Positions 355 through 16,444 of a stretch of 30,252 bases of DNA are shown here, one piece after another. Origin of the DNA: an uncultured Selenomonadaceae bacterium (lineage in GTDB: Bacteria; Bacillota; Negativicutes; Selenomonadales; Selenomonadaceae). The translations under genes were made by a program, and so were the position numbers. The notes beneath the pieces were generated by a model. The model did no database searches. It saw only the letters and a program-made list of their open reading frames with translations, and was not told the origin of the DNA. The stretch's first letter is position 1. Every line of letters begins with the position of its first letter. The stretch lies in assembly GCA_902782705.1 (NCBI GenBank), contig CACZOL010000075.1:1-30252 (forward strand), read 5' to 3'.

Positions 355-423
355 AATCTCACCCTCATTCGTTTTCTGTGTCCCATATATAAATGTAAGA
401 AACTCATTTCGACAAGCATTTTA

Positions 424-432
424 TTATCCACA
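424..432 (+). promoter_or_regulatory. Perfect DnaA box upstream of gyrA
   Basis: TTATCCACA exact match, inside the palindrome TATCCAC-ACA-GTGGATA (425-441). Confidence 0.6.
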
Positions 433-438
433 CAGTGG

Positions 439-559
439 ATATGTGCCGCTAAGCTCGCACTTTCGCGCTCGCTAAGCGGTCACATTATACGCAAGGCATA
501 TGTGCCGCTAAACTCGCGCTTCGCTTTCAGCTTGCGCTCGTCAAGCGGACACATTATAC
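439..559. repeat. Two tandem imperfect palindromic (REP-like) units, 439-490 and 498-559
   Basis: Both begin ATATGTGCCGCTAA(G/A)CTCGC and end GCGCTCG(CT/TC)AAGCGG(T/A)CACATTATAC; the central loops differ. Confidence 0.85.
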
Positions 560-581
560 CACAAAAAAGCAGGCACGGCAA
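553..581 (-). promoter_or_regulatory. Putative sigma-A promoter for gyrA
   Basis: TTGCCG (581-576), 17 bp, TATAAT (558-553), with an extended -10 TGn. Confidence 0.65.
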
Positions 582-607
582 AGCCTTTCTATGCCTTGCC
601 GCGCCTG
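563..607 (-). terminator. Rho-independent terminator after tonB
   Basis: Imperfect 15-bp inverted repeat (570-584 and 593-607) followed by T6 on the minus strand. Confidence 0.7.
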
Positions 608-649
608 TATCCAACGTGTTTCACGTGCAACATGCAAACGTATATGCGA

Positions 650-1399
650 TTATTCCAGCCGGAAAGTAAAAGGCTGATACGCATAGCAGCGCACAGGACG
701 CCCGTAGCCGTCAAGCCCCGGGCTGAAGCTGAATCCTTCCGCCGCTTCCATCGCCGCGCGATCCAACGCCTCGTTTCCCGAAGACTCCACCACGTCCACA
801 TCGTCCACGCCGCCTTCTTTATTCAGCAGGAAACGCACGACCACCGTCCCCTCAATGCCTTTTCGCTGGGCCGAATAGGGATACTCCGGCGCACGGGCGC
901 TCGTGACGCTTGGCGGCACGGCAGGCGATTCGATGGCGTCGCTGGCGGGAGGAATGCCCTGCGTCTCCCCGCTGCCGTCGGGATTCCCCTCTACAGAGCC
1001 GTTGGCGGCGTCTCCGGGGCCTTCGGCTGCCGCTCCGCCGCCGGCAGGGGCGGGAGGCGCGGGAGTCTCCGCGGGCGGCTGCGGCGTCGGCGCAGGCTGC
1101 GGTTCCGGCGTCGGCGGTTCTTCCGGAGGCTTCTCCTCCAGGATATCGTCCGGCAGCGGCGGAGGCGTCTCTTCCGGAGGCTTGGGCGGCGCTTCCGGCT
1201 GCGGCGGTACGGGCGGCGTGGGGACCGCAGGCGTTTTCGGAGCCGTGGATGCGCCCGGGGCGCCCACCAGCGCCACATCGTAAACGGCTTCCAGCGGCTC
1301 GTTTTTTGCAATACGAAGCGCCGCGAATCCGAGCAGCGCGCACACAATGATATGCACGACTACGGAAGCGACAATGCCTTTAGCCGTATTCCCCGTCAT
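650..1399 (-). CDS. tonB: Energy transducer TonB
   Basis: N-terminal TM helix (IVASVVVHIIVCALLGF, with SxxxH), Pro/Glu-rich linker, C-terminal TonB domain (PEYPYSAQRKGIEGTVVVRFLLNKEGGV); follows exbD. Confidence 0.92.
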   Translation of the reverse strand: MTGNTAKGIVASVVVHIIVCALLGFAALRIAKNEPLEAVYDVALVGAPGASTAPKTPAVPTPPVPPQPEAPPKPPEETPPPLPDDILEEKPPEEPPTPEPQPAPTPQPPAETPAPPAPAGGGAAAEGPGDAANGSVEGNPDGSGETQGIPPASDAIESPAVPPSVTSARAPEYPYSAQRKGIEGTVVVRFLLNKEGGVDDVDVVESSGNEALDRAAMEAAEGFSFSPGLDGYGRPVRCYAYQPFTFRLE

Positions 1400-1809
1400 G
1401 ATCCGCCTTCCTTATCCGTCGCGAGCCCCACGCGCGAAATCCCCGCCTTGCGGAACGAATCCAGCAAATGGATGACGGCGCGATACGGAACGCCCTCGTC
1501 GGCCCGAATGATCACGGCGAAATTCTCGTCCCGCTTCCGCTCCTCTTTCGCCTTTTCCATCAGCTCGTTTTCCTTGATGAGCTTATCCTGCAGCCAATAC
1601 ACGCCGTCCCTTTTGACGGTGACGGAAAATTTCGCCGCGCTTTGCGACTGCGTTTCGGTCGCGACGGGGAGCTTGACCGGAATCGTCCGCAGCTCGCTCA
1701 TATACATGGTGCTGACGATGAAAAAAATCAACAGCAGGAAAATCATGTCGATCATCGGGCTGAGCATAAGCTGCGGCGCGCTCTGCCCGCGTTTCTTCAG
1801 CTTGATCAT
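1396..1809 (-). CDS. exbD: Biopolymer transporter ExbD
   Basis: LSPMIDMIFLLLIFFIVST TM motif and IIRADEGVPY...LLDSFRKAGISRVGLAT C-terminus. Confidence 0.92.
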   Translation of the reverse strand: MIKLKKRGQSAPQLMLSPMIDMIFLLLIFFIVSTMYMSELRTIPVKLPVATETQSQSAAKFSVTVKRDGVYWLQDKLIKENELMEKAKEERKRDENFAVIIRADEGVPYRAVIHLLDSFRKAGISRVGLATDKEGGS

Positions 1810-2474
1810 AGCTTCGCCCCCTGCGGCACGGGATGACCGTGCGCCACTGCGCGTTTCCGATCAAGATTTTTCGCGATTGCCTCCAAGAGCGTATTCCCAA
1901 TCTCTTCCACGTTCAGGGAAATCGCCTTGAGCCGACGCATGAAATAAGCGTACATGCAGATAGCGACAATCGAGATGCAAAGGCCGAATACCGTGGTAAT
2001 CAACGCCTCGCCGATACCGGCGGTCACGGCCATCGGATTGTCCAGCCGCTGGCTGAAGCTGTTGAAGGAGGCAATCATGCCCGTCACCGTGCCGAGCAGA
2101 CCAAGCACCGGGGAAAGCGTTACGATCACGTTCAGATAATTGAGATTCCGCTCGAATTTATCCATGGCCCGTTCCGCCCGAACGCTGACGAAGTTCTCGA
2201 GGCGCTCGAAATTCCCGTGCCGCGCCATAACGATGGTGGCGAGCTTCGCCAGCTCGCCTTTCGTCGAATCAGCCAGCTGCTTCGCATTCCCCCAGTCGTC
2301 GCGTTCAATACAATCGCAGAACTCTCGCGTGAATGCCTTGCCGCTGTCATTCGTACGAAAGAACAGCCATCGCTCCACCGAGATGGCGACGGCAGCCAAG
2401 GAACAGAACAGCAGCGGGTACATCACAGGCCCGCCCTTGACAAAATAATCCAATCCGGCCGAAAAAATACTCAT
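1806..2474 (-). CDS. exbB: MotA/TolQ/ExbB proton channel protein
   Basis: GGPVMYPL, SPVLGLLGTVTGMI and GIGEALITTVFGL motifs. Start placed at ATG 2474 behind AGGAAGGAGA. Confidence 0.92.
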   Translation of the reverse strand: MSIFSAGLDYFVKGGPVMYPLLFCSLAAVAISVERWLFFRTNDSGKAFTREFCDCIERDDWGNAKQLADSTKGELAKLATIVMARHGNFERLENFVSVRAERAMDKFERNLNYLNVIVTLSPVLGLLGTVTGMIASFNSFSQRLDNPMAVTAGIGEALITTVFGLCISIVAICMYAYFMRRLKAISLNVEEIGNTLLEAIAKNLDRKRAVAHGHPVPQGAKL

Positions 2475-2531
2475 GACCAATCTCCTTCCTTATGTAAACC
2501 CAAAAATATATACGACATTCTACGATCCCCC

Positions 2532-2638
2532 CTTGTCGAGGGATTTTTTCGTCAGGCACGGAAAAGTGCTCGCAGTCGTAGTTGGAGCACTACGTCAAGA
2601 GCACTTTGACACAGCATGGCGGAAAAAGACCCGACAAG
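2532..2638. repeat. ~107-bp nested imperfect inverted repeat
   Basis: Arms CTTGTCG/CGACAAG (2532-2538, 2632-2638), AAAGTGCTC/GAGCACTTT (2563-2571, 2599-2607) and CGTAGT/ACTACG (2577-2582, 2589-2594). Confidence 0.7.
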
Positions 2639-2640
2639 AG

Positions 2641-3375
2641 CTATTCGCTATATCTCTTATAAATCGCTACCCCTACGGCGAAAAACAGCGCGCCCAATCC
2701 CGCCAATGTCAACACACTCTGCCAAAGGCCCGGCTCCCACGCCGCGCTTCGCATCATGCGGTTCAGCGCGCCGATCGGAAAAAACATCACGATATGCTGC
2801 GCAAAACGCGGCAGATTCTCCACGGGGAAAAACGAGCCGCCGAAAAACGTCATCGGCATGATCAAAAAATTATTCACAAACGCCACGTCGTCGGGCTGCG
2901 ACACAAGCAATCCCACGATCACGCCGAGCGCCGCGAAACAGAACGAGCCGAGGAAAGCGCCTGCCACAAGCGTCGCCCGAAGCTCAATCGCCCCGAATAC
3001 GCCCCACGCCATCAAGAATATCAGCGAGCCGAAAAAGACGCCGCGCGCCACGCCCGCGAGCACGATTCCCAAGATGACCTCCGCCGCCCGTACCGGCGAA
3101 AGCACGAGACTTTGAAAAACATGGTAATACATCCGGCCCACGCTGATGGAACCGGCGGTCTGCTGGAAAGCGTTGACCATGATCGTAATGGCGATGATGC
3201 CGCCCGCCAGGAACGGCAGATACCCGCCGGCAACCTCGACGCGGTTTCCCAGTCCGTAGCCGAACGCGAACAGATAGATGAACGGGGAAACGATGCTGGA
3301 AAAAATATAACCCATGCGTCCGATTTTTTTGTAGAGCATGAGCATCTCGCGGCTGAATACCGCATACGCGCCCAC
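2641..3375 (-). CDS. ABC-2 type exporter permease (NodJ/DrrB-like)
   Basis: Six hydrophobic segments, YLPFLAGGIIAITIM and PMTFFGGSFFPVENLP motifs typical of ABC-2 permeases; GTG start abuts the ATPase stop. Confidence 0.85.
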   Translation of the reverse strand: MGAYAVFSREMLMLYKKIGRMGYIFSSIVSPFIYLFAFGYGLGNRVEVAGGYLPFLAGGIIAITIMVNAFQQTAGSISVGRMYYHVFQSLVLSPVRAAEVILGIVLAGVARGVFFGSLIFLMAWGVFGAIELRATLVAGAFLGSFCFAALGVIVGLLVSQPDDVAFVNNFLIMPMTFFGGSFFPVENLPRFAQHIVMFFPIGALNRMMRSAAWEPGLWQSVLTLAGLGALFFAVGVAIYKRYSE

Positions 3376-4110
3376 TTACAGATCACCTCCGCGAGACAAG
3401 CGGATAAAGAGTTTTTCGAGATCGTCCGCGCCGTTTCCGATACGCTGCTGCAATTTTTCCTTCGTCTCGCTGACGACGAGACTGCCTTCCCTGAAAATCG
3501 CAATCCGGTTGCAAAGTTTTACCGCTTCTTCCATATAATGCGTCGTAAAGATGATCGTCTTCCCTTCCGCTGAGAGCGAGGAAATAATATCCCAAATCCC
3601 CTGCCGCACATCGGGGTCCAATCCGACGGTCGGCTCGTCCAGCAGAAGCAATTCCGGATTCGGCATCAGGCTCCTGGCTATCAACACCCGCCGCATCATG
3701 CCGCCGGACAGGCTCCGAATCGTCTTGGACTGCATATCTTCCAGCTCGAACCGCGCGATGGTCGCCTCCACCGTCTCCGAAAGAGCCTCCACGCCAAAGA
3801 GGCGCCCATACATCGTGAGGGCCTCCCGCACCGTGAACTCGCGCTCCAGATTGTTGTCCTGCGGCACGAGCCCCACAAGCCGCTTCAATGTCGTCGTGCG
3901 CTCCGCCGCGTTCTGCCCGAAAATGAACAGTTCGCCCTCTTCCGGCCTGACAAGTCCGGCAATAATCTTCATCAAAGTCGTCTTGCCCGCGCCGTTCGGC
4001 CCCAAAAGACCGAACACGCCGCCTGCCGGTATGGACAAATCCAGCGGCTGGAGGACCGTCGCGCCCTTATAGATTTTCTTGATCCCTCTTGCCTCTATCG
4101 CATATCGCAT
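3376..4110 (-). CDS. ABC-2 type exporter ATP-binding protein (NodI/DrrA-like)
   Basis: Walker A GPNGAGKT, signature LSGGM, Walker B LLLLDEPT, H-loop TTHYMEEA. True start taken as MRYAIE at 4110; the longer track ORF overlaps the upstream permease. Confidence 0.88.
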   Translation of the reverse strand: MRYAIEARGIKKIYKGATVLQPLDLSIPAGGVFGLLGPNGAGKTTLMKIIAGLVRPEEGELFIFGQNAAERTTTLKRLVGLVPQDNNLEREFTVREALTMYGRLFGVEALSETVEATIARFELEDMQSKTIRSLSGGMMRRVLIARSLMPNPELLLLDEPTVGLDPDVRQGIWDIISSLSAEGKTIIFTTHYMEEAVKLCNRIAIFREGSLVVSETKEKLQQRIGNGADDLEKLFIRLSRGGDL

Positions 4111-4121
4111 AAAGATTATCC

Positions 4122-5159
4122 TCAACGCATTACGTTGTGCGCGCGCCGAAGCAGCCAGAGAAAATACGGCGTCCCGATGAAAGCCGTCATGATACCGACG
4201 CGCACTTCCATCGGCGCGGCAATCACGCGGCCGACCGTATCGCAGAATACGAGAAACGCGCCGCCCGCCAACAAACTTGCCGGAAGCAGCAGCCGATGAT
4301 CGGGTCCGACAATGAGCCGCATCATGTGCGGCACGACAAGCCCTACGAACCCGATATTCCCGCTGATACAGACGCCCGTCGCCGTAACCAGCGAAGCGAT
4401 GGTCATCATGCCGAGCCGATACTTGGCGACCGGCATTCCGACGGCTTTCGCCTCGACGTCGCCGAGCACGAGAATATTCAAATGACGCGCCATCAGGATC
4501 ATCACGGCGGCGCCCAAGAGGATCGGCCCCGCGCCCATCGCCACATGTTCCCATCGCCGATAGTCAAGACCGCCGATCGTCCAGAAAAGATACTGCTGCA
4601 GTTTCTGCTCGCTGATTACGGTGAGGATGCCCGCCGTAACCGCGCCAAGCATCATTCCTACAACGACGCCGGAAAGAAGCAGCGTCATCATCGGAATCTT
4701 CCCGTGCCGCATCGCGAGAAAAACCGTCAGCGTCACAGCGGCCAACGATCCGACCAGCGCGCATATCGGCAGCGCGAAAAGGCTCACTTCACTGAGCCCG
4801 AACGCAATCGCCGCCACCGCGCCCACCGCCGCGCCGCTGGACACGCCGATGATGCCGGGATCGGCGAGCGGGTTGCTGAAGATTCCCTGCATGACCGTCC
4901 CCGAGGCGCCAAGTCCCGCGCCGACCATGAGCCCGACCAGCGTTCGCGGCAGACGGATATGAAAAAGCACCGCTTCCTGCTCCGGCGTCACAACGACGTC
5001 CGCAAAAAAGGGCAATCCCGCATACTGGCAAAACAGCGCGACAATATTCTTGAACGGAATATCAATCTGCCCCCACGACATCGAAAGCAGCGCAACAAGA
5101 ACAAATACCGCCGCCATCAGCAGGAAAAACACCTTGGGCGGGATACGTCCGATTTTCAT
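4122..5159 (-). CDS. FecCD/BtuC/HmuU-family ABC importer permease
   Basis: IRLPRTLVG, MQGIFSNPLADPGIIGVSSGA and GFVGLVVPHMMRLIVGPDHR motifs. Confidence 0.93.
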   Translation of the reverse strand: MKIGRIPPKVFFLLMAAVFVLVALLSMSWGQIDIPFKNIVALFCQYAGLPFFADVVVTPEQEAVLFHIRLPRTLVGLMVGAGLGASGTVMQGIFSNPLADPGIIGVSSGAAVGAVAAIAFGLSEVSLFALPICALVGSLAAVTLTVFLAMRHGKIPMMTLLLSGVVVGMMLGAVTAGILTVISEQKLQQYLFWTIGGLDYRRWEHVAMGAGPILLGAAVMILMARHLNILVLGDVEAKAVGMPVAKYRLGMMTIASLVTATGVCISGNIGFVGLVVPHMMRLIVGPDHRLLLPASLLAGGAFLVFCDTVGRVIAAPMEVRVGIMTAFIGTPYFLWLLRRAHNVMR

Positions 5160-6004
5160 TTTTCGTCCTCCCCGTTCCCAAGAATGGCATGTAAAAGCGC
5201 GGCTCTTTGCCCGTCGTCCGGCGGCGGCTCAGCAAAAACTTCCGCCGTCCCGGTCAACGGATTGCGCACGACGCGAACCGGAACGCCGTAACAACGGCTC
5301 AAATACTCCGACGTCATGACTTCTTCCGGCTTTCCGTCGGCTACGATACGATGATCCCCGACGAGCATCAGTCGCGAACAAAACTTCGCCGCCAAAGAAA
5401 GCTCATGGATAACCATCAAGACCGTTTTCCCCTGCGCGCAAAGCTCACGACAAAAACGAAAGATTTCCTCTTGATAGAATATATCCAAGCCCGTCGCCGG
5501 TTCGTCGAGAAACAGGAGCGGCGTCTGCTGCGCGAGCACTTTCGCCAAGAGCACGCGCTGCCGCTGTCCGCCGGAAATCATATCCACCGAACGATGGGCA
5601 AGATCCCGCACGCCGGTATATTCCATACAGGCGTCCACGATCCTCTCGTCCGCAGGACCTTCCTTTTCCCACCACTCCAGATGCGGATACCGCCCCGTCG
5701 TCACGATCTCCCGCACGCTGTATCCGAAAGCGATCTCCACATTCTGCTGCAAATATGCGACTTCAAGCGCAAATTCCCGACTCGTCATCGTCGCTGCATC
5801 GCGTCCGTTCAGCAGCACGCTGCCCGCGCGCGGGTCGAGGATTCCCCGAAGCGTCTTTAAAAGCGTGGATTTGCCCGCGCCGTTCGGCCCGATCAGTCCG
5901 ACCATTTCCCCCCGGCGCACTTCAAAAGACACGTCCGACAAAACATTTTTATGTCTTCCGTATCCGGCGGCAAGCTTCTCCGCCTGCAAAACAATTTCAT
6001 TCAT
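5156..6004 (-). CDS. FecE/BtuD/HmuV-family ABC importer ATPase
   Basis: GPNGAGKSTLL, ISGGQRQR, LFLDEPATGLD, VIHELSLAAKFC; overlaps the permease by 4 nt. Confidence 0.93.
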   Translation of the reverse strand: MNEIVLQAEKLAAGYGRHKNVLSDVSFEVRRGEMVGLIGPNGAGKSTLLKTLRGILDPRAGSVLLNGRDAATMTSREFALEVAYLQQNVEIAFGYSVREIVTTGRYPHLEWWEKEGPADERIVDACMEYTGVRDLAHRSVDMISGGQRQRVLLAKVLAQQTPLLFLDEPATGLDIFYQEEIFRFCRELCAQGKTVLMVIHELSLAAKFCSRLMLVGDHRIVADGKPEEVMTSEYLSRCYGVPVRVVRNPLTGTAEVFAEPPPDDGQRAALLHAILGNGEDEK

Positions 6005-6009
6005 TCCCT

Positions 6010-7011
6010 TTACTCCTCGCCGGAAAACGAGATGTGGCGGTTATCCTCCTGACGAAACGCGTCGCCGTAAGCGATAAAAGCAAGCTCTTGGACGCCGAAG
6101 ACGAAATCCTGGGAGCCGTTATAGATGTAACTCTCCCTTGGGTACTCCAGCCGCCGATTCTGTATGGCCTTTATCGTCTGGAGCGAAGGATCGTCAAGAT
6201 AGCTCCGGATAAACGCTTCCGTATCGAAATTTCCTTTATCGTCATAATTCGGCAGGAGCAAAATATCCGGATTGCTTTTGACAAGAAGCTCCTTTGTCAA
6301 AGGCTGGCCGTTTTTCAGTCCCACCGCCGCCGCACCGTTGACGACGCCCGCCCGCGTGCACATATCGTCGAACGCGCTTCCAATACCGCCGTAACTGGTC
6401 ATCACGGACAGCAGCACGACGCGCTTCCTCTCTTCGGCGGGAATCCGATCGATGCGGACAGTGATATCCCGCAGGATCTCTTCCATGCGGTCGAGCACCT
6501 TCGTCCCTCGCTCCGATTCCCCGACGCTGTCTGCAATCAAGCGAATACAGGCCCGGATATCCTCATAGGACTCGCCACGTCCCGCCACCACCACGGGAAT
6601 CCCCAGTGCGCGCAGCGCCGCTACCTGCTCCATATCCGTCCAGCCGTTGGCGATGACAAGATCGGGGCGCCAGCCCACGATTTGCTCCACCGTGGGATTT
6701 CCAACCTTCTCCGGCACGCGCTTCGCCTTTTCCACGACCGACGATTCTTTCGGATCGTCCAGGAAGCGGCTGATGGCCGCCATACGGTTGGTAGGCACCA
6801 CGCCCAGCAAGATCTCGTCCGTATATATGGCCAAAGATATAATCCGCTCGGGTTTTTGGGGAATCCGCACCGCCGTCCCTTGGGCGTCCGTTACGGTATA
6901 GCCTTCTTCTCCGCCTGACCTCTGAGACGGAGGCTTTCCACAGGACACGGTGAGCAGCACGGCAAAAAATACGAACACCGCGCATAAGCTGTACATGAGC
7001 CGACGCTTCAT
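6010..7011 (-). CDS. Fe/heme/B12-type (class III) substrate-binding lipoprotein 2
   Basis: Lipoprotein signal MKRR...LLTVSC, TVTDAQGTAVRIPQKPERIISL, EQIVGWRPDLVI. Start at ATG 7011 behind AAAAGGGG. Confidence 0.88.
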   Translation of the reverse strand: MKRRLMYSLCAVFVFFAVLLTVSCGKPPSQRSGGEEGYTVTDAQGTAVRIPQKPERIISLAIYTDEILLGVVPTNRMAAISRFLDDPKESSVVEKAKRVPEKVGNPTVEQIVGWRPDLVIANGWTDMEQVAALRALGIPVVVAGRGESYEDIRACIRLIADSVGESERGTKVLDRMEEILRDITVRIDRIPAEERKRVVLLSVMTSYGGIGSAFDDMCTRAGVVNGAAAVGLKNGQPLTKELLVKSNPDILLLPNYDDKGNFDTEAFIRSYLDDPSLQTIKAIQNRRLEYPRESYIYNGSQDFVFGVQELAFIAYGDAFRQEDNRHISFSGEE

Positions 7012-7153
7012 TATGACGTCCCCTTTTCTCTTAAAATCCCAAAGCGTCGAAGCACTTTGCCCTCCCAATGGGTATGCCCTTTGCGAGGCGGCCGATGGAC
7101 TCCCGGAGAGGGCCCGCCGAAGGCGGTGGGTATAATTTTGTGTCGTTGCGTTT

Positions 7154-7182
7154 ACGTTACCTTACACCTTTGAAGATGTCAA
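7154..7182 (-). promoter_or_regulatory. Putative internal sigma-A promoter upstream of SBP2
   Basis: TTGACA (7182-7177), 17 bp, TAACGT (7159-7154), with an AT-rich upstream tract. Confidence 0.6.
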
Positions 7183-7185
7183 TAA

Positions 7186-7219
7186 AATATTCAATATAAT
7201 ATTCGATTTAATGTTCAGA
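7186..7219. promoter_or_regulatory. Three direct repeats at 12-bp period, candidate regulator site
   Basis: AATATTCAAT (7186), AATATTCGAT (7198), AATGTTCAGA (7210), immediately upstream of the -35. Confidence 0.5.
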
Positions 7220-7221
7220 TT

Positions 7222-8214
7222 TCATTTTTTCGGCACAGCCGACAGATAGCGGTTCTTCGGCTGCGCAAAGGTGTCTCCGTAAAGGATGTACGCCGCTTCC
7301 TGCGCGCCGAACACGACGTTTTGCGAGATATTGTAAATATAATGCGCCCACGGATAGCAGACGTGCCCATCGCGCACGGCTTTCATGACTTGCAGCGACG
7401 GATCGCTCATATATTCCGCGCCATACTGCTGTTCTTTCGAGGCAGGATCCTCGTAGGACGGCAGGAAAATATAGTCGGGATTGCAGGCGATGAACTGCTC
7501 CTTCGTCATGGCCTCGCCGTTCCTGTTCCCCGCCAAAGCTTTCGCGTTCCTTGCGCCGGCATAAGAAAGCACGTCGTCGATCATACAGCCCGCGCCGCCG
7601 TAAGCCGGCATGATGGAAACCAGCGCCACCGTCGCGCCTTTTTTCTCTTTCGGGACCTCCTCGATCCGCTTCATCAAAGCGGCCAGTTCTTCGTCCATCA
7701 TCGCCACGAGCTTCTCGCCCCGCTCCTTCTCGTCCACGGCGGCCGCAATCAGCCGTACCGTGTCGCGCACCTCCGCAAAATTTCGCGGCGCTTTGCAGGT
7801 GACCACCGGGATTCCGAGATCGCGAAGCGCCGCAACCTTTTCAATCGGAATCCACGTCTGTACCAGCACGAGGTCGGGCTTCAGGGCCGCCACCGTCTCC
7901 ACCGAAGGATTTCGTATGATACGGTTCGGGATTTTCTCCGCAAGCTCGGTAACATTCGATCGCTTCGGATCGACAAAAGCCTCGTTGACGGCGACCATGC
8001 GCTCCGTCTCCACGAGTCCGAGCAGCACTTCGTCCGTTCCCGTCGTCACGGATACGATGCGTTTCGGCTTTGCCGGAATTTTTACCTCGTCCCCGCGCAC
8101 GTCGGTGACTACATGAAACTCCTCCGCCTTCGTCTGCACCGTCCCCGGCCCGCAAGCGGCACACAAAAGACACAGCGCCAAAAGGCAAAGCAAGCAAGCC
8201 GCCTTCTTAAGCAT
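7222..8214 (-). CDS. Fe/heme/B12-type (class III) substrate-binding lipoprotein 1
   Basis: Signal MLKKAACLLCLLALCLLCAAC, VTDVRGDEVKIPAKPKRIVSV, ETVAALKPDLVL; paralog of SBP2. Start 8214 overlaps the cobN stop. Confidence 0.88.
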   Translation of the reverse strand: MLKKAACLLCLLALCLLCAACGPGTVQTKAEEFHVVTDVRGDEVKIPAKPKRIVSVTTGTDEVLLGLVETERMVAVNEAFVDPKRSNVTELAEKIPNRIIRNPSVETVAALKPDLVLVQTWIPIEKVAALRDLGIPVVTCKAPRNFAEVRDTVRLIAAAVDEKERGEKLVAMMDEELAALMKRIEEVPKEKKGATVALVSIMPAYGGAGCMIDDVLSYAGARNAKALAGNRNGEAMTKEQFIACNPDYIFLPSYEDPASKEQQYGAEYMSDPSLQVMKAVRDGHVCYPWAHYIYNISQNVVFGAQEAAYILYGDTFAQPKNRYLSAVPKK

Positions 8215-11200
8215 CTGCCCGTTCCTCCATTTCACCTTCGACCTCCAGATACAGCTTGACAAGAGATTCCTGCATTTCCTGCGACGCGTTCCAGAGTCCG
8301 CGCTTCTGCGCCTCCAGCAATGTCTCCGCGATACGCCGGAGCGCCCAAGGATTCACATGGTTCATCCAGGCCCGCATCTCCGGATCAAGCGCATACCGCT
8401 TCGCATATTCTTCATACATCCAATCGTCCATGATATTGCTGGTTGCGTCCCACTCATAGCTATGGGCGACGACGTTCGCCAGCTCGGAGGCGCCTTTGTA
8501 TCCGTGACGCTTCATGCCGTCAATGAACTTCGGATTCATGATCTCGCCCCGGAAAATGCGTTTTGCCTCTTCGCGTACCGACCGCACCTGCACCCTGCGG
8601 CGATCGCTGGTATCCGTGCTGTACGATTTCGGCGCTTTTCCGGTCAGCGCGCGCACCGTCGCAATCATACCGCCGTGATAGGCGTTGAAGTCGTCACAGC
8701 TGAACATGTGCACTTCACGGTTATCTTCGTTCTTGATCGTGGCCTCGATTCCCCGCATACGGCGCTTGAAAACCTCCGGCTCGTATGCCCCGGGCAGCGC
8801 GTCAGAGCCGTAAGCCGTTCCCGAATAACGTACATAAACGTCCGCGATATCGCTCAGCTTTTGCCACTCATGCGTTGCGAGGATTGCCTGGACGCCCGCG
8901 CCATAAGCGCCCGGCGGATCGCCGAAAATCCGGTACGACGCCCGCGCCCACGCTTCCTCATGACTTGCGCCGTTCTCTTCCAGCCATGCGGCGTCTGCGA
9001 GAACATGCTTGCGGACGAAATTCTCTTCTTCCGGTTCGTCAAGCTCCCGCACCATCCGAACCGCCTCGTCCATCCAGCGGATCGCGTCGGGCATGCTGTC
9101 GCGGAAAAGCCCGCTGATACGCCCCGTGACGTCAATCCTCGGCCGTCCGAGCTCCGAAAGAGGAATGATCTCAAGTCCGACGACGCGCATAGACGGACGC
9201 TGCCAAACCGGGCGCACGCCCATCAAATACAAATACTCCGCCACGCATTGCCCATGGCTTCGCATATTGGCGCCCGACCAAAAGACCACGCCCACCGACT
9301 CCGGATAGTGGCCCTCGTCCGCAATAAAGCGTTTGATGGTCTCGTCGCCCAGCGTCTTCCCCATAGCCCAAGCTGCTTGGGTCGGCATCGTCCTCGGGTC
9401 CAATCCATAGAAATTTCTGCCCGTGGGCAGAAGCGCGTCCCCGTTCGTCGTCGGCGCACCTGCCTGACTCGGCTCGATATACTGCCCTTCCAAAGCCCGG
9501 AGCGTGTTTGAAAGCTCCTCTTCCGTACGCCGAAGCTTCGGCGCAAGGGTTTCGGATACCGTGCGCAGGATCTGTTCCATGCGTACCCGCCCGTCCTCGG
9601 AAATATTTGCAAGTTCCGGCAAGGAAAGCGCGTCTTTCACCGACGCTTCGGCATATCCGCGCTCGCCCATTTTTGCGATCATGTCATGCATGACTTGCTC
9701 CGCCGCGTCAAGCTTTTTCCCGTAGGATTCCCCGTCGGGGGCCAGCGCTGCACTTTCCTCCAAAGCGCGTTCATAGTCCAGTCCTTTCTCGGCCATGATG
9801 AGACGGATCAACGATTCCCTGTCCCCGTTATCCAGCCGCAGAAGCGCCATCAGGAACTCCGTGAAATCCTCGCCCGTCGGCATCTGCCCGAGAATATGGA
9901 GTCCGGTACGGATCTGCATATTCTTGATATCCGTCACGGCATTGTGCAGCTCGCCTACATAAGCGTCAAAATCCTCTTTCTCGGCAATATGGTCGAAATG
10001 GCACGCCGCAGCTTTTTCGCGCACAATGTTCTTTGCTTCGTCAAGACTGTCCGGTTGATTCGTGCGGAAATGGGCATACTCGTCCAGCGCGCTCTCCAGT
10101 TCAGCCATCTCCGCATACACGCCGGACAAGCGCATCGGCGGCGAAAGATGGCTGACGAGGCACGCCGCGCCGCGGCGTTTTGCCTGAAGCCCTTCTCCGA
10201 CAATCGTGATCCAGTACGGATAAATGTCCGGCAAATCCCCCAGGGCGATATCCGGATAGCACCCCTCGGAAAGACCGGTGCTCTTGCCCGGCAGCCACTC
10301 CAAAGAGCCGTGCGTTCCCACATGAATGACCGCGTCCGCATGCCAAAGGTCGCGCACCCAATGATAAAACCCGATATAATGATGCGGCGGCGCAAGATCC
10401 GGCGAATGCAGGATCTTGCCCGGGTCCTCGCCAAACCCGCGCGGCGGCTGCACCGTGAGAAACACGTTTCCGTTCATCGTGCCGGGAATCAAAAGATCTT
10501 CGTCATAAAGGAACACTTCTCCCGGCGCTTCTCCCCAGTCGACCGTCATTCTCTCCCGCGTCTCGGCAGGCAGTTTCTTGAAAAACGAGCGGTATTCCTC
10601 CGCCGTGAGACGTCCCGCCGCTGCTTCCGCCTGCTCCTCGCTGAGCATCTCACGATCGTTTGTCACATGGGCCGTCAGGATGTCTATCAGTTCCTGTCCG
10701 CTCTCCGGCACGAAATCCACCTGATATCCGGCTTCCTTCATCGCCGCCAGCATACGCCGTACGCTTTCCGGCGTATCCAGTCCCGCCGCGCTTCCGATAT
10801 TGGAATTTGTCGGCGGGTAATTGTGAAGCACGATCGCGATCCGCTTCTCGTCATTCTTCTTGCGTGAAAGCGCCGCCCATTTGCGCGCTTTCGACGCCAC
10901 CCGATGAACCCGCTCCGGGAGCGGCACAAAAGACGCGACGTCATCTTCTTTCCACGTCTTCGCCGCAATCGGCACGGAATGGATCGTCCCGTCAAACTCC
11001 GGCAGGCTCACGCTGATCGAGACTGCGGAAGGCTCAAGTCCCGCAGGCGACTCTGCCCAGCTCTCCTCGCTCCCGAGAATCGTATACGCCGTAAGAATCG
11101 GCACGCCGATCCTGGACAAATCCTCCGTCGCCGTTCCCGAAAGGTGCAAAGAAAACTTCGTCGTTGTCACAAGCACATCGACCAGCCGCTTCCCGTCGCG

Positions 11201-11905
11201 GTAAAAACAGCGGTCGACAGCATCCATGAAAGACGGCGACTGCAAACTCTCGTTACGAAACGTATTCGTGAAGACCGCGATGACGTTCATGCCCTCGTCT
11301 TCCAAGGCCCGAACCAGCGAGGTGTGATAAGCAAATTCCCCGGAAATCCACTCCGAGCGGTAAAAAATCACGCCGGCCGTCGGCTTCGCCGCGTCGTAAT
11401 GCGTGGAAAGATATCCGCCGATATCCTCCGGACTGCCCTCCCAATCGGGATGCCAGACGCCGTTCCACGGCAGAGGCGTCGGCGGCGCAGCTTTGTATGG
11501 GGTACCGCCGAACTCGCTGCCCAGCCAAAGCAGCAAATTGTAATGATTTTCCGCCCCGTCATAGCGAAAATATTGCCATGCCGTTACCGCCTGCGCATCC
11601 GAAACGCCGGCCATCACCTGATCGTCGCCAGCGTTTTCCACCAAAATCAGATAGCGGCTTCCCCGCTGCCGCAAAAAACGTACCGCCCGCTGCAAAAACG
11701 GATTGTCCAGCCCGCTTCCCATCCACAGGAAAAGGCTGAACTCCGCCTCGGACACGGCGTTTTTTATTTCCCCGGAAAAATCCGTCTGACCGTTTGCCGA
11801 AAAACAACCGGCCGCAAGCTCCGGCGCCTCTGCCGTCAGTCGCTTGCATTCCTGAGTCAGAAGGTTATAACTGCGCGCCACATTCGTGCATACAAAAATC
11901 TTCAT
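8207..11905 (-). CDS. cobN: CobN/magnesium-chelatase-H family protein (cobaltochelatase CobN-like)
   Basis: ~1230 aa with LHNYPP, VQPPRG, HVGTHGSLEWLPGK, LLPTGRNFY, NPKFIDGMKRHGYKGA and NPWAL motifs. Start is ATG 11905 (GGGG RBS) or 11917. Family is certain; the biochemical role is not. Confidence 0.9.
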   Translation of the reverse strand: MKIFVCTNVARSYNLLTQECKRLTAEAPELAAGCFSANGQTDFSGEIKNAVSEAEFSLFLWMGSGLDNPFLQRAVRFLRQRGSRYLILVENAGDDQVMAGVSDAQAVTAWQYFRYDGAENHYNLLLWLGSEFGGTPYKAAPPTPLPWNGVWHPDWEGSPEDIGGYLSTHYDAAKPTAGVIFYRSEWISGEFAYHTSLVRALEDEGMNVIAVFTNTFRNESLQSPSFMDAVDRCFYRDGKRLVDVLVTTTKFSLHLSGTATEDLSRIGVPILTAYTILGSEESWAESPAGLEPSAVSISVSLPEFDGTIHSVPIAAKTWKEDDVASFVPLPERVHRVASKARKWAALSRKKNDEKRIAIVLHNYPPTNSNIGSAAGLDTPESVRRMLAAMKEAGYQVDFVPESGQELIDILTAHVTNDREMLSEEQAEAAAGRLTAEEYRSFFKKLPAETRERMTVDWGEAPGEVFLYDEDLLIPGTMNGNVFLTVQPPRGFGEDPGKILHSPDLAPPHHYIGFYHWVRDLWHADAVIHVGTHGSLEWLPGKSTGLSEGCYPDIALGDLPDIYPYWITIVGEGLQAKRRGAACLVSHLSPPMRLSGVYAEMAELESALDEYAHFRTNQPDSLDEAKNIVREKAAACHFDHIAEKEDFDAYVGELHNAVTDIKNMQIRTGLHILGQMPTGEDFTEFLMALLRLDNGDRESLIRLIMAEKGLDYERALEESAALAPDGESYGKKLDAAEQVMHDMIAKMGERGYAEASVKDALSLPELANISEDGRVRMEQILRTVSETLAPKLRRTEEELSNTLRALEGQYIEPSQAGAPTTNGDALLPTGRNFYGLDPRTMPTQAAWAMGKTLGDETIKRFIADEGHYPESVGVVFWSGANMRSHGQCVAEYLYLMGVRPVWQRPSMRVVGLEIIPLSELGRPRIDVTGRISGLFRDSMPDAIRWMDEAVRMVRELDEPEEENFVRKHVLADAAWLEENGASHEEAWARASYRIFGDPPGAYGAGVQAILATHEWQKLSDIADVYVRYSGTAYGSDALPGAYEPEVFKRRMRGIEATIKNEDNREVHMFSCDDFNAYHGGMIATVRALTGKAPKSYSTDTSDRRRVQVRSVREEAKRIFRGEIMNPKFIDGMKRHGYKGASELANVVAHSYEWDATSNIMDDWMYEEYAKRYALDPEMRAWMNHVNPWALRRIAETLLEAQKRGLWNASQEMQESLVKLYLEVEGEMEERADA

Positions 11906-11931
11906 ATTTTTCCCCATCTTTCAATCAAGAC

Positions 11932-11953
11932 GAGGGCTGCCGAAGCAGCCCTC
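11932..11953 (-). other. Perfect 9-bp hairpin with UUCG loop between the small gene and cobN
   Basis: GAGGGCTGC-TTCG-GCAGCCCTC on the minus strand, no U-tract. Confidence 0.7.
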
Positions 11954-11959
11954 TGGGTT

Positions 11960-12274
11960 TCATGCCTTTTTGTGCTTTCCTGCCGTACCGGACATGATGC
12001 GCTCATACATCGAGTGAATCTCGTCCGCCGACGCGCCTTTCGCTTTTGCCGCCTTTACATGGACGATTGCGCTCTTGTATTTCTTGTGCGCCTCGTCGTT
12101 GGGGATTTTGTCGGTGTCCTTGAAGGGATCGAAGGCTATCACGCGCTTGAAGATCGCGTGAATCTCCTCAGAGCTCTTACCCTTCGCCTTGGCTGCCGCC
12201 GCGTGCCGCTTCGCGCGGTCGTAGCGGATCTTGCCGTGGGGTCCCTCTGGAATTTTCGGTGCCGGATGTGCCAT
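11960..12274 (-). CDS. Hypothetical 104-aa His/Lys/Ala-rich protein with two internal repeats
   Basis: ATG 12274 behind a strong RBS GGAAGGAGG; fills the gap between receptor and cobN. Repeats AAKAKGKSSEEIHAIFKR and AAKAKGASADEIHSMYER. Confidence 0.85.
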   Translation of the reverse strand: MAHPAPKIPEGPHGKIRYDRAKRHAAAAKAKGKSSEEIHAIFKRVIAFDPFKDTDKIPNDEAHKKYKSAIVHVKAAKAKGASADEIHSMYERIMSGTAGKHKKA

Positions 12275-12326
12275 TTCTCTCGCCTCCTTCCGTTTCAAAA
12301 ATGAACAGGATAACCCCGTTTTCATC

Positions 12327-14372
12327 TTAAAATTTTTGTGTGAAACTAAAAAGGAAGTTGCTGGGCGCTGAATAGTATTTGGAAGACGTATGGGAAATAA
12401 TGTCATGTCGGTCAAAGATGTTGTTCAGCGTCAGCTCGAACTCGGTTTTATCTGTCGGTGCATACCCCAACGTAAACGTCGTCAGGAAATACGGTTTTAC
12501 ATGGTAAGAATGTTGTTTAGTTGGCGTCATCACACGCGCTCCGAGAAACGAAGCACTGAGTGAAGCGCGCAATTTATCTTTCTTATAACTAATTTCTCCC
12601 GTAAGCTGGATTTTTCCAAACTTTCTATCCCAGTACGTTTTATCTGCATTCGCTTTAACCTTTGGATTTTGCCACGTCAGACCTGCATTATAGGAAAAAC
12701 CATTCTTGCTCTCTACTGCGTAAGAAAGCTCCAATCCCTCGTTCTTGAAATCTTCGTTTTTAAAAGTCCAATCGCCAGGGCCGTTATAAGTTGCAGAGAT
12801 GTTATCCTTTATGCGCATGACGAAAAGCGACGCCTTCCACGAATGTTTCCCCGTTATGTTTTTCCAGCCAATTTCGTAGTTGATACCCTTCTGTGGCTTG
12901 AGATCGGCAGGTTCAACCTCTTTGTATATGGCGTAAAGCGTCGGCATAACGAAGGACTGGGAAATATTTAAGAAGAGGCTATTCGTATCGTTCATTTTAT
13001 GCAGGAACTGTCCCGACGCACTGAAATTGCTGAAATTTTTCCCGCCGGAAGCACCTGTAGACCATGTTTCGCGCCCGCCAATGATGAACGAATTTTTCTT
13101 GTCGATTTTTTGATCCCATTGCGCGAAAACGCCCCAATTATTCCTGTCCTCATGCTTTACATCGGTCCCAGTTGTTTTAAATGTCGCCAATGCCCGAAAA
13201 GATTCATGTTGACCATTAAATCCCGCTGTTAACGTCCCTTTCCCTATTTTCCAATTCCGTTGCACATCTAAACCATAAGTACTGTTCTTTTCACGCGTAT
13301 CATACCACCGTGAAGCCACTGCCGGTACTCCGTAGGTATTGGTACGATATGTCGGACCATGTGCGCTCGTCATTCCCGTATTGAAGTAAGCACTGCCCTT
13401 CCAGTTTTTGTCACGATAATTAAGTTGCGCCATGTCACGCACTGTAGCATACTCACGCAAATAGAACGGACTTCCAACCAAATACTGATTTGCAGGATTT
13501 GTTGCACTTGCAATCCGGCGATCAAACTTTGCGCTCGTCTCATAATGGCCATACAGGAAACTCAGATGATCATTGAACTTGTAACTGATTGTCCCGCTCT
13601 GGTTCAAAATGTCCCGCCAATCCGTCCTCAAGTTGCCGCCAGTTACTTCTGAATAAGTCGCCCCTTTTCGTTCTTGCCACGAGTTGCGGTCATAGGTGAC
13701 GACCAAGCCCTCGGCTCCTACGTTCAAGTGATATTTCTGTTGTCCATAGTTTCCATAACCTACGGTGACAGAATTTTTCGCTTCCGTTTTCGTAATAATA
13801 TTGATGACACCTGCCATCGCCTCGCTGCCGTACAGCACCGAGCCGCCGCCTTTAACCACTTCAATGCGCTCAATTGTGTCGGCGGCAATATCTTGTAAAT
13901 GATACTTGCCACGTTGAGCAATCGGATTGCCGTTTACAAGAACAAGCGTTCCATTGTCAGTTCCACGAATATTGGCATTATTGGACATAGTTCCCATATC
14001 TACGCCGAGCGGCCCGAACGCTTCGTACGCGAAACCATTAATCTTTTGAAGCGCCTCCGCCGCATTTTTCGCGCCGCTGTCTTTGATGTCTTCTTCAGTA
14101 ATGACTTCCGTGGCCATCGGCACGTCCACTTCACGCTTTTCCGTACGGGTAGCCGTGACTACCACTTCGCCCATGGTGTAGGCGGGCGTCTCCGACGCGG
14201 AGCTCTCCTCAGCTTTCGTCGTCGTTGCCGCCGCCTCAACTTCTGCGGCTTCTGCGGAAAGAGGAAGAATAATACCCCCCCCGAGGGCAATAATCCCTGC
14301 TAAGAGGACATTTCTGCTCTTCGCCCCAATTTTGCTCAGCGACTTTCTGCCGAGCTTCCGACTTGCTTTCAT
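12327..14372 (-). CDS. TonB-dependent outer-membrane receptor
   Basis: Signal peptide, TonB box region TMGEVVVTATRT, plug motifs NIRG and IERIEVVKGGGSVLYGSEAMAGVINIIT, C-terminal Phe (FSFTQKF). Confidence 0.93.
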   Translation of the reverse strand: MKASRKLGRKSLSKIGAKSRNVLLAGIIALGGGIILPLSAEAAEVEAAATTTKAEESSASETPAYTMGEVVVTATRTEKREVDVPMATEVITEEDIKDSGAKNAAEALQKINGFAYEAFGPLGVDMGTMSNNANIRGTDNGTLVLVNGNPIAQRGKYHLQDIAADTIERIEVVKGGGSVLYGSEAMAGVINIITKTEAKNSVTVGYGNYGQQKYHLNVGAEGLVVTYDRNSWQERKGATYSEVTGGNLRTDWRDILNQSGTISYKFNDHLSFLYGHYETSAKFDRRIASATNPANQYLVGSPFYLREYATVRDMAQLNYRDKNWKGSAYFNTGMTSAHGPTYRTNTYGVPAVASRWYDTREKNSTYGLDVQRNWKIGKGTLTAGFNGQHESFRALATFKTTGTDVKHEDRNNWGVFAQWDQKIDKKNSFIIGGRETWSTGASGGKNFSNFSASGQFLHKMNDTNSLFLNISQSFVMPTLYAIYKEVEPADLKPQKGINYEIGWKNITGKHSWKASLFVMRIKDNISATYNGPGDWTFKNEDFKNEGLELSYAVESKNGFSYNAGLTWQNPKVKANADKTYWDRKFGKIQLTGEISYKKDKLRASLSASFLGARVMTPTKQHSYHVKPYFLTTFTLGYAPTDKTEFELTLNNIFDRHDIISHTSSKYYSAPSNFLFSFTQKF

Positions 14373-14410
14373 GACTCTTTCAAACCCCCTGTAATAATAG
14401 TAGTTTTTAA

Positions 14411-14431
14411 ATGAATATTCATATATTCAAT
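14411..14431. promoter_or_regulatory. Palindromic operator candidate downstream of the receptor promoter
   Basis: ATGAATATTCAT perfect 12-bp palindrome (14411-14422) followed by ATATTCAAT (14423-14431). Confidence 0.55.
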
Positions 14432-14444
14432 TCGGGACTTTCAA

Positions 14445-14474
14445 ACTATATCATTAAAAGTAAGGGGATGTCAA
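14445..14474 (-). promoter_or_regulatory. Putative sigma-A promoter of the receptor operon
   Basis: TTGACA (14474-14469), 18 bp, TATAGT (14450-14445). Confidence 0.7.
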
Positions 14475-14591
14475 TAAAAAATGAATTATTTTATATAATT
14501 ATTTCCTATGGACTACAATTATATGATAAAATAATTATAGATTCTTATTATTTTATAACTAAAAATGAATAATTTCAATTTATGTAGGTAT

Positions 14592-14619
14592 AAAAAAACC
14601 GCGAACAAGTCGCGGCTTT
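14592..14619 (-). terminator. Terminator after ppx
   Basis: CCGCGA/TCGCGG stem followed by T7 on the minus strand. Confidence 0.7.
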
Positions 14620-14642
14620 GTCAATACGATCCGACGGTTCTT

Positions 14643-15554
14643 TCACGCCCGCAATATTTCGCTGTACAAATATCCTTCCCGCACGCCGGAGTCGCTGTAG
14701 ACGATTTCCCGGCAGCCGAGCTTTTGCATCAGCGTGTCGGCGAGGATCAATCCGGAAAACAAGGTATGAATCCGATCCGGCGCCGCGAGCATCAGACGCT
14801 CCGCGTCTTCCTCCGCGAGAGGCTTGCCGGAAACGTAATGCTTGAGAATATCGCCGAAACGTCGCGTCTTCATGCGCGTTTCTTTTTCTTCCAACCCATA
14901 CATCAGACGATAAAGCGCAGAAGCGCCCTTGAAGGTGCCTCCGATGCCGCAGGCAACGACGTTCCGCATAAGCGGGAGCTTGCAGCAGACGATTTCTATC
15001 GCTTTGGCAACTTCCTTCCGGATTGCCTCGACTTCTTCCTGCGTCGGCAACAATCCGCGCACATAAGCGACTTTCAGGGAAAGCGATCCAAAAGGCAGAC
15101 TCATTTTTCGCACGACGCGGCGCGCGCGATACATCACGATCTCGGTGCTTCCGCCGCCGATGTCGATCAGTACACCGTCGTCCGCCGCCAGGTCATGCGT
15201 CGCGCCTACAAAATCAAAGGCCGCTTCTTCTTCGCCGGAAATGACACGAATCTTTACGCCCGTCTTTTCTTCTATTTTCGCGACGGCCTCGGCGCTGTTT
15301 TTCGCATTTCTGAGCGCCGCCGTCGTAAACGCGACGACATTTTGGACGCCCATGCCTGCAAGAAAATCGCGATATTCGCTGACGACTTCGCTGGCGCGCC
15401 GTATTCCTTCCTCCTGCATCACGCCTTCCTTCACATATGCGGATAATCCGACCGTATGCTTTCGTTTCATCACTTGCACCGCATGATCGTCGTGGATCTT
15501 GTAAACCGCCATTCGTATCGTATTGGAACCGACATCGATCATTGCCAACAGCAT
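14643..15554 (-). CDS. ppx: Ppx/GppA family phosphatase (short form, no HD domain)
   Basis: MIDVGSNTIR, ISGEEEAAF, DIGGGSTE and GVREG ASKHA motifs. Confidence 0.88.
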   Translation of the reverse strand: MLLAMIDVGSNTIRMAVYKIHDDHAVQVMKRKHTVGLSAYVKEGVMQEEGIRRASEVVSEYRDFLAGMGVQNVVAFTTAALRNAKNSAEAVAKIEEKTGVKIRVISGEEEAAFDFVGATHDLAADDGVLIDIGGGSTEIVMYRARRVVRKMSLPFGSLSLKVAYVRGLLPTQEEVEAIRKEVAKAIEIVCCKLPLMRNVVACGIGGTFKGASALYRLMYGLEEKETRMKTRRFGDILKHYVSGKPLAEEDAERLMLAAPDRIHTLFSGLILADTLMQKLGCREIVYSDSGVREGYLYSEILRA

Positions 15555-15797
15555 CTTTTCACCTCCGGCCTGCCTATTCTATTTCCACGCCGACTGTAAT
15601 TTTCCTCTAAAAATTTCATCTATGTCTTTTTTCCTAAAAAATTTTCTACATTTTATCTGAAAAATCTATCCTCTGCTATTTCTTTTCTTTCCTCAATATG
15701 GTACAATGACAGAAATACTAAATTAGACCTATAAAATTTAAAATGATGGAAGCACGTGCATTCTTGCGTAACCAATACAAAGTGAGGAGACCGCGAC

Positions 15798-16364: not shown

Positions 16365-16444
16365 CACACGCAAGCGTTGACCGGGCAAGAATGAGTGGAT
16401 TCATATGATCCGCATCTCGTATTGCGTTGCCTTTGTGGAAGCAT

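Follow-up and report, generated by a model that had tools for sequence, protein, structure and literature searches.

A pared-down, riboswitch-less operon that joins TonB-dependent uptake to a CobN-type chelatase in a Selenomonadaceae bacterium is a probable member of the corrinoid salvage operons

Does an operon that joins a TonB-dependent uptake route to a CobN-like protein handle heme or a corrinoid? Here, we address this question for 12 co-oriented genes in a stretch of 30,252 nucleotides (hereafter, the window) from an uncultured Selenomonadaceae bacterium, which is contig C75 of a metagenome-assembled genome (MAG) of 1.62 Mb that is 77.6% complete. The genes encode a TonB-dependent receptor (TBDR), a 104-aa His-repeat protein, a CobN-like chelatase, two binding lipoproteins (BP1 and BP2), a FecCD/FecE-class importer, an ABC-2 ATPase and permease, and ExbB, ExbD and TonB. 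All 12 are present as the first-pass annotation of this DNA had listed them, and each was checked against Pfam and NCBIfam. That annotation had read them as a candidate for a so far undescribed system that takes up a tetrapyrrole such as heme, removes its metal in the cytoplasm and pumps out the leftover porphyrin. We find that a transport function is well supported by homology, and that the operon is probably a pared-down, riboswitch-less member of the corrinoid (B12-type) uptake and salvage operons of Negativicutes and Clostridia.

The class of the chelatase

Several lines of evidence bear on the class of the large protein encoded in the operon. First, over its full length it passes the equivalog model for CobN (TIGR02257; 946.4 bits, cut-off 822 bits, NCBIfam), and its score against the BchH model (TIGR02025; 824 bits) lies just below the cut-off of 829 bits. 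Among PDB entries, it matches CobNs with 745 and 633 bits, ChlH with 545 bits and HmuS with 400 bits. Second, the CobN active-site motifs are kept: HVGTHG corresponds to H-x-G-x-H-G, and SCDDFNAYHGG aligns with DSDDYLQYHGG in the CobN of aerobic Burkholderiales, with HVGTHG and SxDDFxxYHGG being common to the two proteins. Third, in an alignment and tree of 29 CobN-type sequences and 10 HmuS sequences, the latter fetched from metagenomes via the motif LSLDHxxEFMGG, the window protein is placed well within a clade of Selenomonadaceae that has starred support; the sister of the small group to which it belongs is the CobN of locus L033 (70% identity), after which come the CobNs of Selenomonas/Mitsuokella and Schwartzia. 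The nearest CobN relatives are those of Schwartzia, Selenomonas, Megamonas and Mitsuokella, all of them Selenomonadaceae, in agreement with the earlier assignment of the DNA to a diderm member of the Bacillota. The protein has neither a signal peptide nor a membrane anchor. By its sequence, the window chelatase is CobN-type and cytoplasmic. It shares the domain set of the large subunit and the active-site motifs with the class I chelatases CobNST and ChlHID; however, the window operon contains neither biosynthetic neighbours nor AAA+ partners and, unlike CobNST and ChlHID of aerobic B12 and chlorophyll synthesis, the window CobN is encoded within an uptake locus, in an anaerobe that has CbiK-type chelatase genes as well.

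[quoted passage not shown] In this reading, heme would be imported intact, a soluble CobN would strip its iron in the manner of HmuS, iron or heme would be passed to the His protein, and protoporphyrin would leave through the ABC-2 pair. One of these marks has a counterpart here: in an alignment of the head domain that is approximate, HmuS Met-79 aligns with a WMG conserved in the window clade, i.e., one of the two heme ligands is kept. In the same approximate alignment, the HGR with His-254 faces KFS in the window CobN. An N-terminal anchor is absent, the maximal 19-residue hydropathy in the first 70 residues being 0.47 compared to 2.1 to 3.5 in five HmuS proteins, and so is the Met-rich stretch, with at most four Met per 40 residues compared to seven in HmuS. 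LSLDHV(Y/F)EFMGG is found in all ten HmuS sequences; where HmuS has LSLDHVYEFMGG, the window protein has the CobN-type FSCDDFNAYHGG with Asp for His and Ala for Glu, a motif in agreement with the CobN of aerobic Burkholderiales. In the tree, the ten HmuS form a separate clade with starred support; the two branches that link it to the CobN group are each 0.96 changes per site long (∼1.9 in total). Rocha et al. likewise treat the HmuS/BtuS family as separate from B12-regulated CobN, describing it as a third type (PMC6460266). Because the HMM, motif and tree results are all CobN-type, the window CobN is, as judged from sequence, not a member of the HmuS/BtuS family, and the proposed analogy with HmuS is not borne out. 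HmuS/BtuS of the Bacteroidota hmu loci and the window CobN do share the PF02514 superfamily and neighbouring genes for a TonB-dependent receptor and ExbBD-type proteins; however, HmuS is membrane-anchored, faces the periplasm and needs no inner-membrane tetrapyrrole importer, whereas the window CobN is cytoplasmic and belongs to a different clade. A receptor gene beside a CobN-like gene does not by itself define a heme dechelatase system; motif and clade tests separate the two.

Operons of relatives, the transport genes and the likely cargo

The operons in which relatives carry orthologous genes point to the cargo. Those of Schwartzia (L016/L053), Selenomonas (L018), Mitsuokella (L038) and a related genus (L216 of genome G038) share with the window the BPs, FecCD/FecE and the ABC-2 pair (61 to 82% identity), ExbBD-TonB and, except for L216, an orthologous CobN (61 to 64%). 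In contrast to the window operon, these loci contain cobalamin riboswitches, together with differing sets of ChlI/ChlD, CbiZ, NifHDK-like and radical SAM genes. Rfam places cobalamin riboswitches at the head of the Schwartzia L016 and Selenomonas L018 operons, and the Schwartzia order is riboswitch-short CobN-like-FecE-ExbB-ExbD-small protein-CbiZ-CobN-BP-ChlI-ChlD-NifHDK-like-FecCD-ABC2-ABC2-TBDR. In Mitsuokella oral taxon 131 (L038), it is TBDR-BP-radical SAM-BP-TBDR-ChlI-ChlD-CbiZ-CobN-BP-NifHDK-like-FecE-FecCD-DyP. L216 (G038:C2:329000-348999) has, at positions 2674-12802, tandem cobalamin riboswitches followed by TBDR-BP-BP-FecE-FecCD-ABC2 ATPase-ABC2 permease-ExbB-ExbD-TonB; this is the backbone of the window in the same order and with 47 to 72% identity, without the small protein and CobN, both of which the window has. 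In four relatives, namely Schwartzia, Mitsuokella, G029 and L010, CbiZ adjoins the orthologous CobN; CbiZ acts only on corrinoids, and on complete ones.

A described locus resembles these operons. In Dehalobacter restrictus PER-K23, operon-2 combines genes for FepBCD/BtuCDE-type transporters with those for two CbiZ, for CobN and for subunits of an Mg-chelatase; a cobalamin riboswitch precedes it, and starvation for corrinoids raises its expression 346-fold (Rupakula et al. 2015, PMC4285132). Like the window, this operon and its counterpart in Acetobacterium woodii join an importer of the FepBCD/BtuCDE class to a CobN-type chelatase; operon-2 is tied to corrinoid supply, and the role of the chelatase is unexplained in both operon-2 and the window. 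The two differ in that the riboswitch, the two CbiZ and the ChlI/ChlD-type Mg-chelatase subunits of operon-2 are all missing from the window operon, while the latter adds a receptor and ExbBD-TonB (neither an outer-membrane receptor nor a TonB system being listed for operon-2 in the paper), as well as the ABC-2 pair and the 104-aa His protein. The gene combination is, thus, not undescribed, as had been thought, but a trimmed variant of a locus of the Dehalobacter operon-2 type (PMC4285132). Taken together, because the operons of relatives have cobalamin riboswitches and CbiZ, and because Dehalobacter operon-2 responds to corrinoid starvation, the transport backbone and CobN of the window appear to belong to a B12-linked locus family. 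Judged by the conditions that the first-pass annotation itself had set for giving up its reading, the riboswitches, CbiZ and ChlI/ChlD of the orthologous operons also speak for B12.

The NifH/D/K-like and radical SAM genes raise a different option for the cargo. In L033, the order is BP-TBDR-NifH-NifD-NifK-like-small protein-radical SAM-CobN-BP, and genes of both kinds are linked to orthologous CobN and the small protein more widely. In tetrapyrrole pathways, known nitrogenase-like enzymes act by reducing double bonds of the ring. The locus family could, therefore, salvage another tetrapyrrole, i.e., a metal-free or early precursor such as a ring of the sirohydrochlorin or hydrogenobyrinate type, which relatives would convert towards B12 by means of their chelatase, radical SAM enzyme and nitrogenase-like reductase; control by B12 riboswitches suits a route that ends in B12. 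The window would then have kept uptake and metallation. We consider it unlikely both that the family salvages such a ring and that the window has retained just these two steps of its conversion: the window operon lacks the reductase and radical SAM genes, neither of which was found in the assembly; CbiZ works on complete corrinoids; and we know of no such substrate being available in gut or oral habitats. Our literature search found no paper that links nitrogenase-like, CobN and radical SAM genes in non-phototrophs.

The transport genes follow a known plan. The window shares with BtuB-TonB/ExbBD-BtuFCD of Escherichia coli both the protein classes and the logic of transport in three stages; in contrast to that B12 uptake system, it has two BPs, an added ABC-2 pair, cytoplasmic enzymes and a receptor far below the BtuB cut-offs. 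The receptor is 68%, 53% and 48% identical to receptors of related clusters. Its top NCBIfam match is TonB-B12, far under the cut-off; the BtuB-type models TIGR01779 (127.5 bits, cut-off 599.7) and NF007926 (105 bits, cut-off 836) are still its top-ranked receptor models, and in PDB BtuB alone spans both plug and barrel, with 35 bits. BP1, the gene for which is also called in L060, is 86% identical to its orthologue in G088, and BP2 is 47% identical to the second BP of L216. The importer ATPase is 63% identical to the L216 orthologue, and the FecCD permease is 72% and 82% identical to those of L216 and Schwartzia, respectively. The energiser is encoded as one unit with MotA_ExbB, ExbD and TonB C-terminal domains; over the latter domain, the TonB proteins of the window and L216 are 36% identical. 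These matches support the part of the earlier proposal in which a tetrapyrrole-type substrate would pass through both membranes into a cytoplasm that holds a signal-less CobN.

The ABC-2 pair is found in clusters of four genera, with 61 to 67% identity between the ATPase and its orthologues in L216, Schwartzia and G029, and 67 to 71% identity between the permease and orthologues in related clusters. Moreover, a FecCD-FecE-ABC2 ATPase-ABC2 permease unit with 45 to 49% identity lies beside TonB-dependent receptors and ExbBD in L212, L213, L214, L215 and L219, which come from five further Selenomonadaceae genomes. None of these five loci has CobN, and Rfam detects no cobalamin riboswitch within 20 kb in L212 to L215 (L219 was not scanned). 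Because the pair is present in L216 and in five loci without CobN, it is a fixed part of the importer unit and is not tied to CobN. Export of a leftover porphyrin, as had been envisaged, receives no specific support from it, and its occurrence without CobN counts against the heme reading.

The His-repeat protein, the ATPase partners and the proposed route

The 104-aa protein contains two copies of one motif, H..Y..A..H followed by G.S..E.H, and its seven His residues are invariant in 17 homologues, confirming the His repeat noticed earlier. Its model has four helices (pLDDT 84); the fold has no neighbour in PDB (best E-value 0.95), the Pfam match to CMD is weak, and no domain scores above threshold. 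A profile search of 1.84 billion representatives returned 64 relatives, some of which have three repeats. Close relatives (at least 50% identity) sit in CobN-type loci, and distant relatives are lone genes at unrelated sites. The exception among the former is G088, the nearest GTDB relative and a member of the same genus, in which locus L051 (G088:C44, 355-5086) reads TBDR (68%)-small protein (82%)-BP1 (86%)-FecE (80%) without CobN or BP2 between these genes; this arrangement suggests that CobN and BP2 behave as an insertable module. The 104-aa gene is under strong purifying selection (dN/dS 0.035 to 0.10). These observations support the protein as a conserved partner of such loci, and our best guess is that it is a putative His-lined carrier of Co(II) or a corrinoid.

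Several observations weigh against the corrinoid reading. From the weak and mixed matches of the receptor, BP1 and BP2 in PDB and NCBIfam, no choice between siderophores, heme and B12 can be made for these proteins. As in the window, no cobalamin riboswitch was detected in L060, L062 and L051, the loci whose operons are closest to it. The operon contains neither CbiZ nor nitrogenase-like genes, and none were found in the 77.6% of the genome that is assembled; ChlI and ChlD were not found in this assembled part with Mitsuokella ChlI/ChlD as queries, and PF01078 matched only a ComM-like protein. A predicted complex of the 104-aa protein with CobN residues 345-1236 scored 0.00, which the tool rates as evidence neither for nor against. 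Our literature search found no published enzyme activity for any CobN from such a salvage locus. Finally, the Mitsuokella operon ends with a gene for a DyP-type peroxidase, next after FecCD (L038:20218-21165); the DyP family has been linked to heme iron release, and some of its members have been discussed as heme deferrochelatases. The peroxidase, the lack of a riboswitch in the window copy and the missing ChlI/ChlD would fit heme, as would the HmuS precedent and the conserved Met. However, the anchor, Met-rich insert, heme-site His and motif of HmuS are missing from the CobN, which is far from HmuS in the tree, B12 riboswitches and CbiZ occur in the orthologous operons, boxes resembling those of Fur, PerR and Zur do not score above shuffles, and the absence of ChlI/ChlD is unproven. 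Altogether, intact heme import followed by iron removal seems quite improbable to us.

The ATPase partners deserve attention of their own, since a MAG of this completeness does not allow the claim that they are lacking. In a family sample of 200 genomes, ChlD is present in 50 of the 53 CobN-positive genomes. Two of the three exceptions are incomplete assemblies (55% and 83%), and in the third, a 99%-complete genome, the CobN match is a contig-end fragment only. A paralogous CobN (∼45% identity) adjoins ChlI-ChlD in eight of ten same-genus genomes; this locus was not found in the MAG of the window. Because some relatives have more CobN than ChlD genes (three and two in Schwartzia, two and one in G029), sharing of ChlD motors looks usual. 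An in-frame stop suspected in the Schwartzia ChlD match was rejected as damage, being the gene's own stop codon. Because the MAG is 77.6% complete and ChlD is present in nearly all CobN-positive genomes, a stand-alone CobN is not established. The idea that a stand-alone, ATPase-free cytoplasmic CobN together with the His protein removes or swaps Co or Fe in an imported tetrapyrrole, the ring of which is then expelled by the ABC-2 pair, has in our judgement a small chance of being correct. If true, the two proteins would be a cytoplasmic counterpart of HmuS that arose inside the CobN clade, in a B12-type operon rewired after loss of its riboswitch, ChlI/ChlD, CbiZ and reductase.

Alternatively, CobN and the His protein could be non-catalytic and hold or escort the imported corrinoid or metal, forming a sink that sustains import. 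When HmuS was isolated, a tetrapyrrole was bound to it at a head/neck site that is non-catalytic (PMC12583661). ChlI/ChlD are neither in the operon nor found in the assembly, the purifying selection is strong, and in G088 the small protein stays with a receptor and a BP although it has no neighbouring CobN, all of which would suit a sink. We regard a sink as very unlikely, given that the catalytic motifs of CobN are fully kept, that ChlD accompanies CobN in nearly all relatives and that such a role is without precedent.

The rest of the genome bears on corrinoid use. The only cobalamin riboswitch detected lies on contig C62 (9414-9589, minus strand), where it precedes three genes (region 5745-9589): one for a CbiK-like protein that carries a signal peptide and is exported (7503-8510), one for a mini-CobN of 364 aa (6353-7447) and one for a flavodoxin-like protein. 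The mini-CobN matches CobN residues ∼589-765 and ∼1106-1233 only and is found in every same-genus genome. In the Schwartzia operon, the gene that comes first behind a riboswitch is a longer CobN-like gene (L016:3608-5368, tblastn, 34% identity to CobN). Cobalamin synthase CobS is present in the genome of the window. Because it has both a cobalamin riboswitch and CobS, we take the genome to use corrinoids.

For the corrinoid reading, we suggest the following route. By homology, the receptor, energised by the ExbB-ExbD-TonB of the operon, brings the substrate through the outer membrane, and the two BtuF-class lipoproteins hand it to the BtuCD-class importer for passage into the cytoplasm. As the orthologous operons suggest, this substrate would be a corrinoid or corrinoid precursor rather than heme, and cytoplasmic CobN and the 104-aa protein would act on the cargo or its metal. 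As the likeliest chemistry, cobalt would be inserted into corrinoids that are incomplete or carry the wrong metal, or metal would be exchanged on them; ChlI/ChlD motors would act in trans from genes at another site, probably within the fifth of the genome that is not assembled, and the His protein would be a possible carrier of Co(II) or the corrinoid. The riboswitch, CbiZ, radical SAM and nitrogenase-like genes would have been lost in the species of the window, and the receptor/promoter cassette would be exchangeable between strains.

Layout, promoter and genomic setting

The 12 genes occupy positions 650-14372 on the minus strand between a single strong promoter and a single terminator (Table 1). 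They overlap by 4 to 8 nt or are separated by gaps of at most 52 nt, except for 210 nt between the BP genes and 160 nt before exbB. L060 lies on a metagenome contig independent of the window and encodes a CobN that is 99% identical; its gene order matches that of the window from the small gene to gyrA. Because it independently repeats the gene order up to gyrA, the operon is not an assembly artefact.

Table 1. Features of the operon (positions in the window)
Feature	Position	Strand	Details
Operon promoter	14445-14474	-	TTGACA-18-TATAGT, TG-extended; 11/12 positions, sigma-70-like
TonB-dependent receptor	12327-14372	-	681 aa; Pfam Plug and TonB_dep_Rec_b-barrel
104-aa His-repeat protein, cytoplasmic	11960-12274	-	Two His-motif copies, four predicted helices
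Hairpin, 9 bp, GC-rich	11932-11953	-	Weak T tail; in the 42-nt spacer between small gene and cobN
CobN-type class I chelatase, large subunit	8207-11917	-	1236 aa; PF02514, 1292 bits
Binding lipoprotein 1 (BP1)	7222-8214	-	Peripla_BP_2; start overlaps cobN end by 8 nt
Spacer before BP2 gene	7012-7221	-	210 nt; promoter-like TTGACA and GAATAT repeats
Binding lipoprotein 2 (BP2)	6010-7011	-	Peripla_BP_2 (Pfam)
Importer ATPase, FecE/BtuD class	5156-6004	-	Pfam/NCBIfam
Importer permease, FecCD/BtuC class	4122-5159	-	PF01032, 311 bits; top NCBIfam match BtuC
ABC-2 type ATPase, DrrA/NodI class	3376-4098	-	Pfam/NCBIfam; alternative start a few codons upstream
ABC-2 membrane protein (permease)	2641-3375	-	PF01061
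ExbB	1806-2480	-	PF01618
ExbD	1396-1809	-	Open reading frame; PF02472 matched on the 99%-identical locus L060
TonB	650-1399	-	Pro-rich linker, C-terminal TonB domain; TIGR01352, 75 bits
Intrinsic terminator	570-607	-	15-bp stem and T run; ends the operon before gyrA

The promoter is the best sigma-70-like site within positions 300-14800 and follows the terminator of an upstream ppx-like gene. The region upstream of it is AT-rich, and TGAATAT/ATTCAT repeats lie between the -10 element and the ribosome-binding site (14400-14425). TTCAT/GAATAT repeats around the -35 element and in the leader are shared by the riboswitch-less promoters (window 14400-14425 and 7185-7215; L051, L060 and L062), with four copies in a 12-nt period in L051; no tie of these repeats to Fur-type boxes or other genes was found. 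No cobalamin or other riboswitch was detected by Rfam in the window at the gathering threshold or in regions 11800-16600 and 6950-7300 at E-value thresholds. The spacer before the BP2 gene, for which a riboswitch had been considered, has no Rfam match and folds no more stably than shuffles (z = -0.31). Fur, PerR and Zur consensus boxes likewise gave no higher scores than shuffles in the two promoters. We also rejected the idea that the palindrome ATGAATATTCAT near the promoter marks a regulon, both other exact copies in the genome lying inside coding sequence, and the context TTCAT-N-TATTGACA has no second occurrence in the assembly. The hairpin that separates the small gene from cobN could act as a partial terminator, or else as a processing site, and thereby set the ratio of small protein to CobN.

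L060 has the same promoter, with identical -35, -10 and upstream regions, followed by a different receptor gene: between window 14373-14480 and L060:300-420, similarity stops directly after CCCGAATT. The window receptor gene is an outlier in GC content (47% compared to 55.8% for the genome). Because L060 shares the promoter and not the receptor, and because of this GC difference, the data suggest that a 5' cassette of receptor and promoter is exchanged between strains. Horizontal transfer of the enzyme and transport genes was considered and rejected, their GC content of 56 to 60% (67% for TonB) not being under the genome mean. A decaying remnant was also rejected, with dN/dS of 0.035 to 0.12 for CobN and the small gene; cobN itself (0.08 to 0.12) is under purifying selection. 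gyrB and gyrA are ∼16 kb apart, and the operon and Ppx/GppA-like and guanylate-kinase-like genes lie between them (window 1-354 and 14643-18534). GC skew flips sign near 22 kb, placing the locus near a likely replication origin.

The operon family to which we assign this locus is already known; what is new here is the pared-down layout, together with the small His protein and an ABC-2 pair that is linked to the importer. The finding corrects a tempting mis-annotation as a heme dechelatase system. Operons that combine corrinoid uptake with CobN are common in gut, oral and rumen anaerobes and respond strongly to B12 starvation. Among those compared, the window copy is the smallest version, consisting only of transport, CobN and one small His protein, and for this reason it is a convenient minimal system for asking what the chelatase does in a salvage route, what cargo the His protein has and why an ABC-2 pump accompanies the importer.

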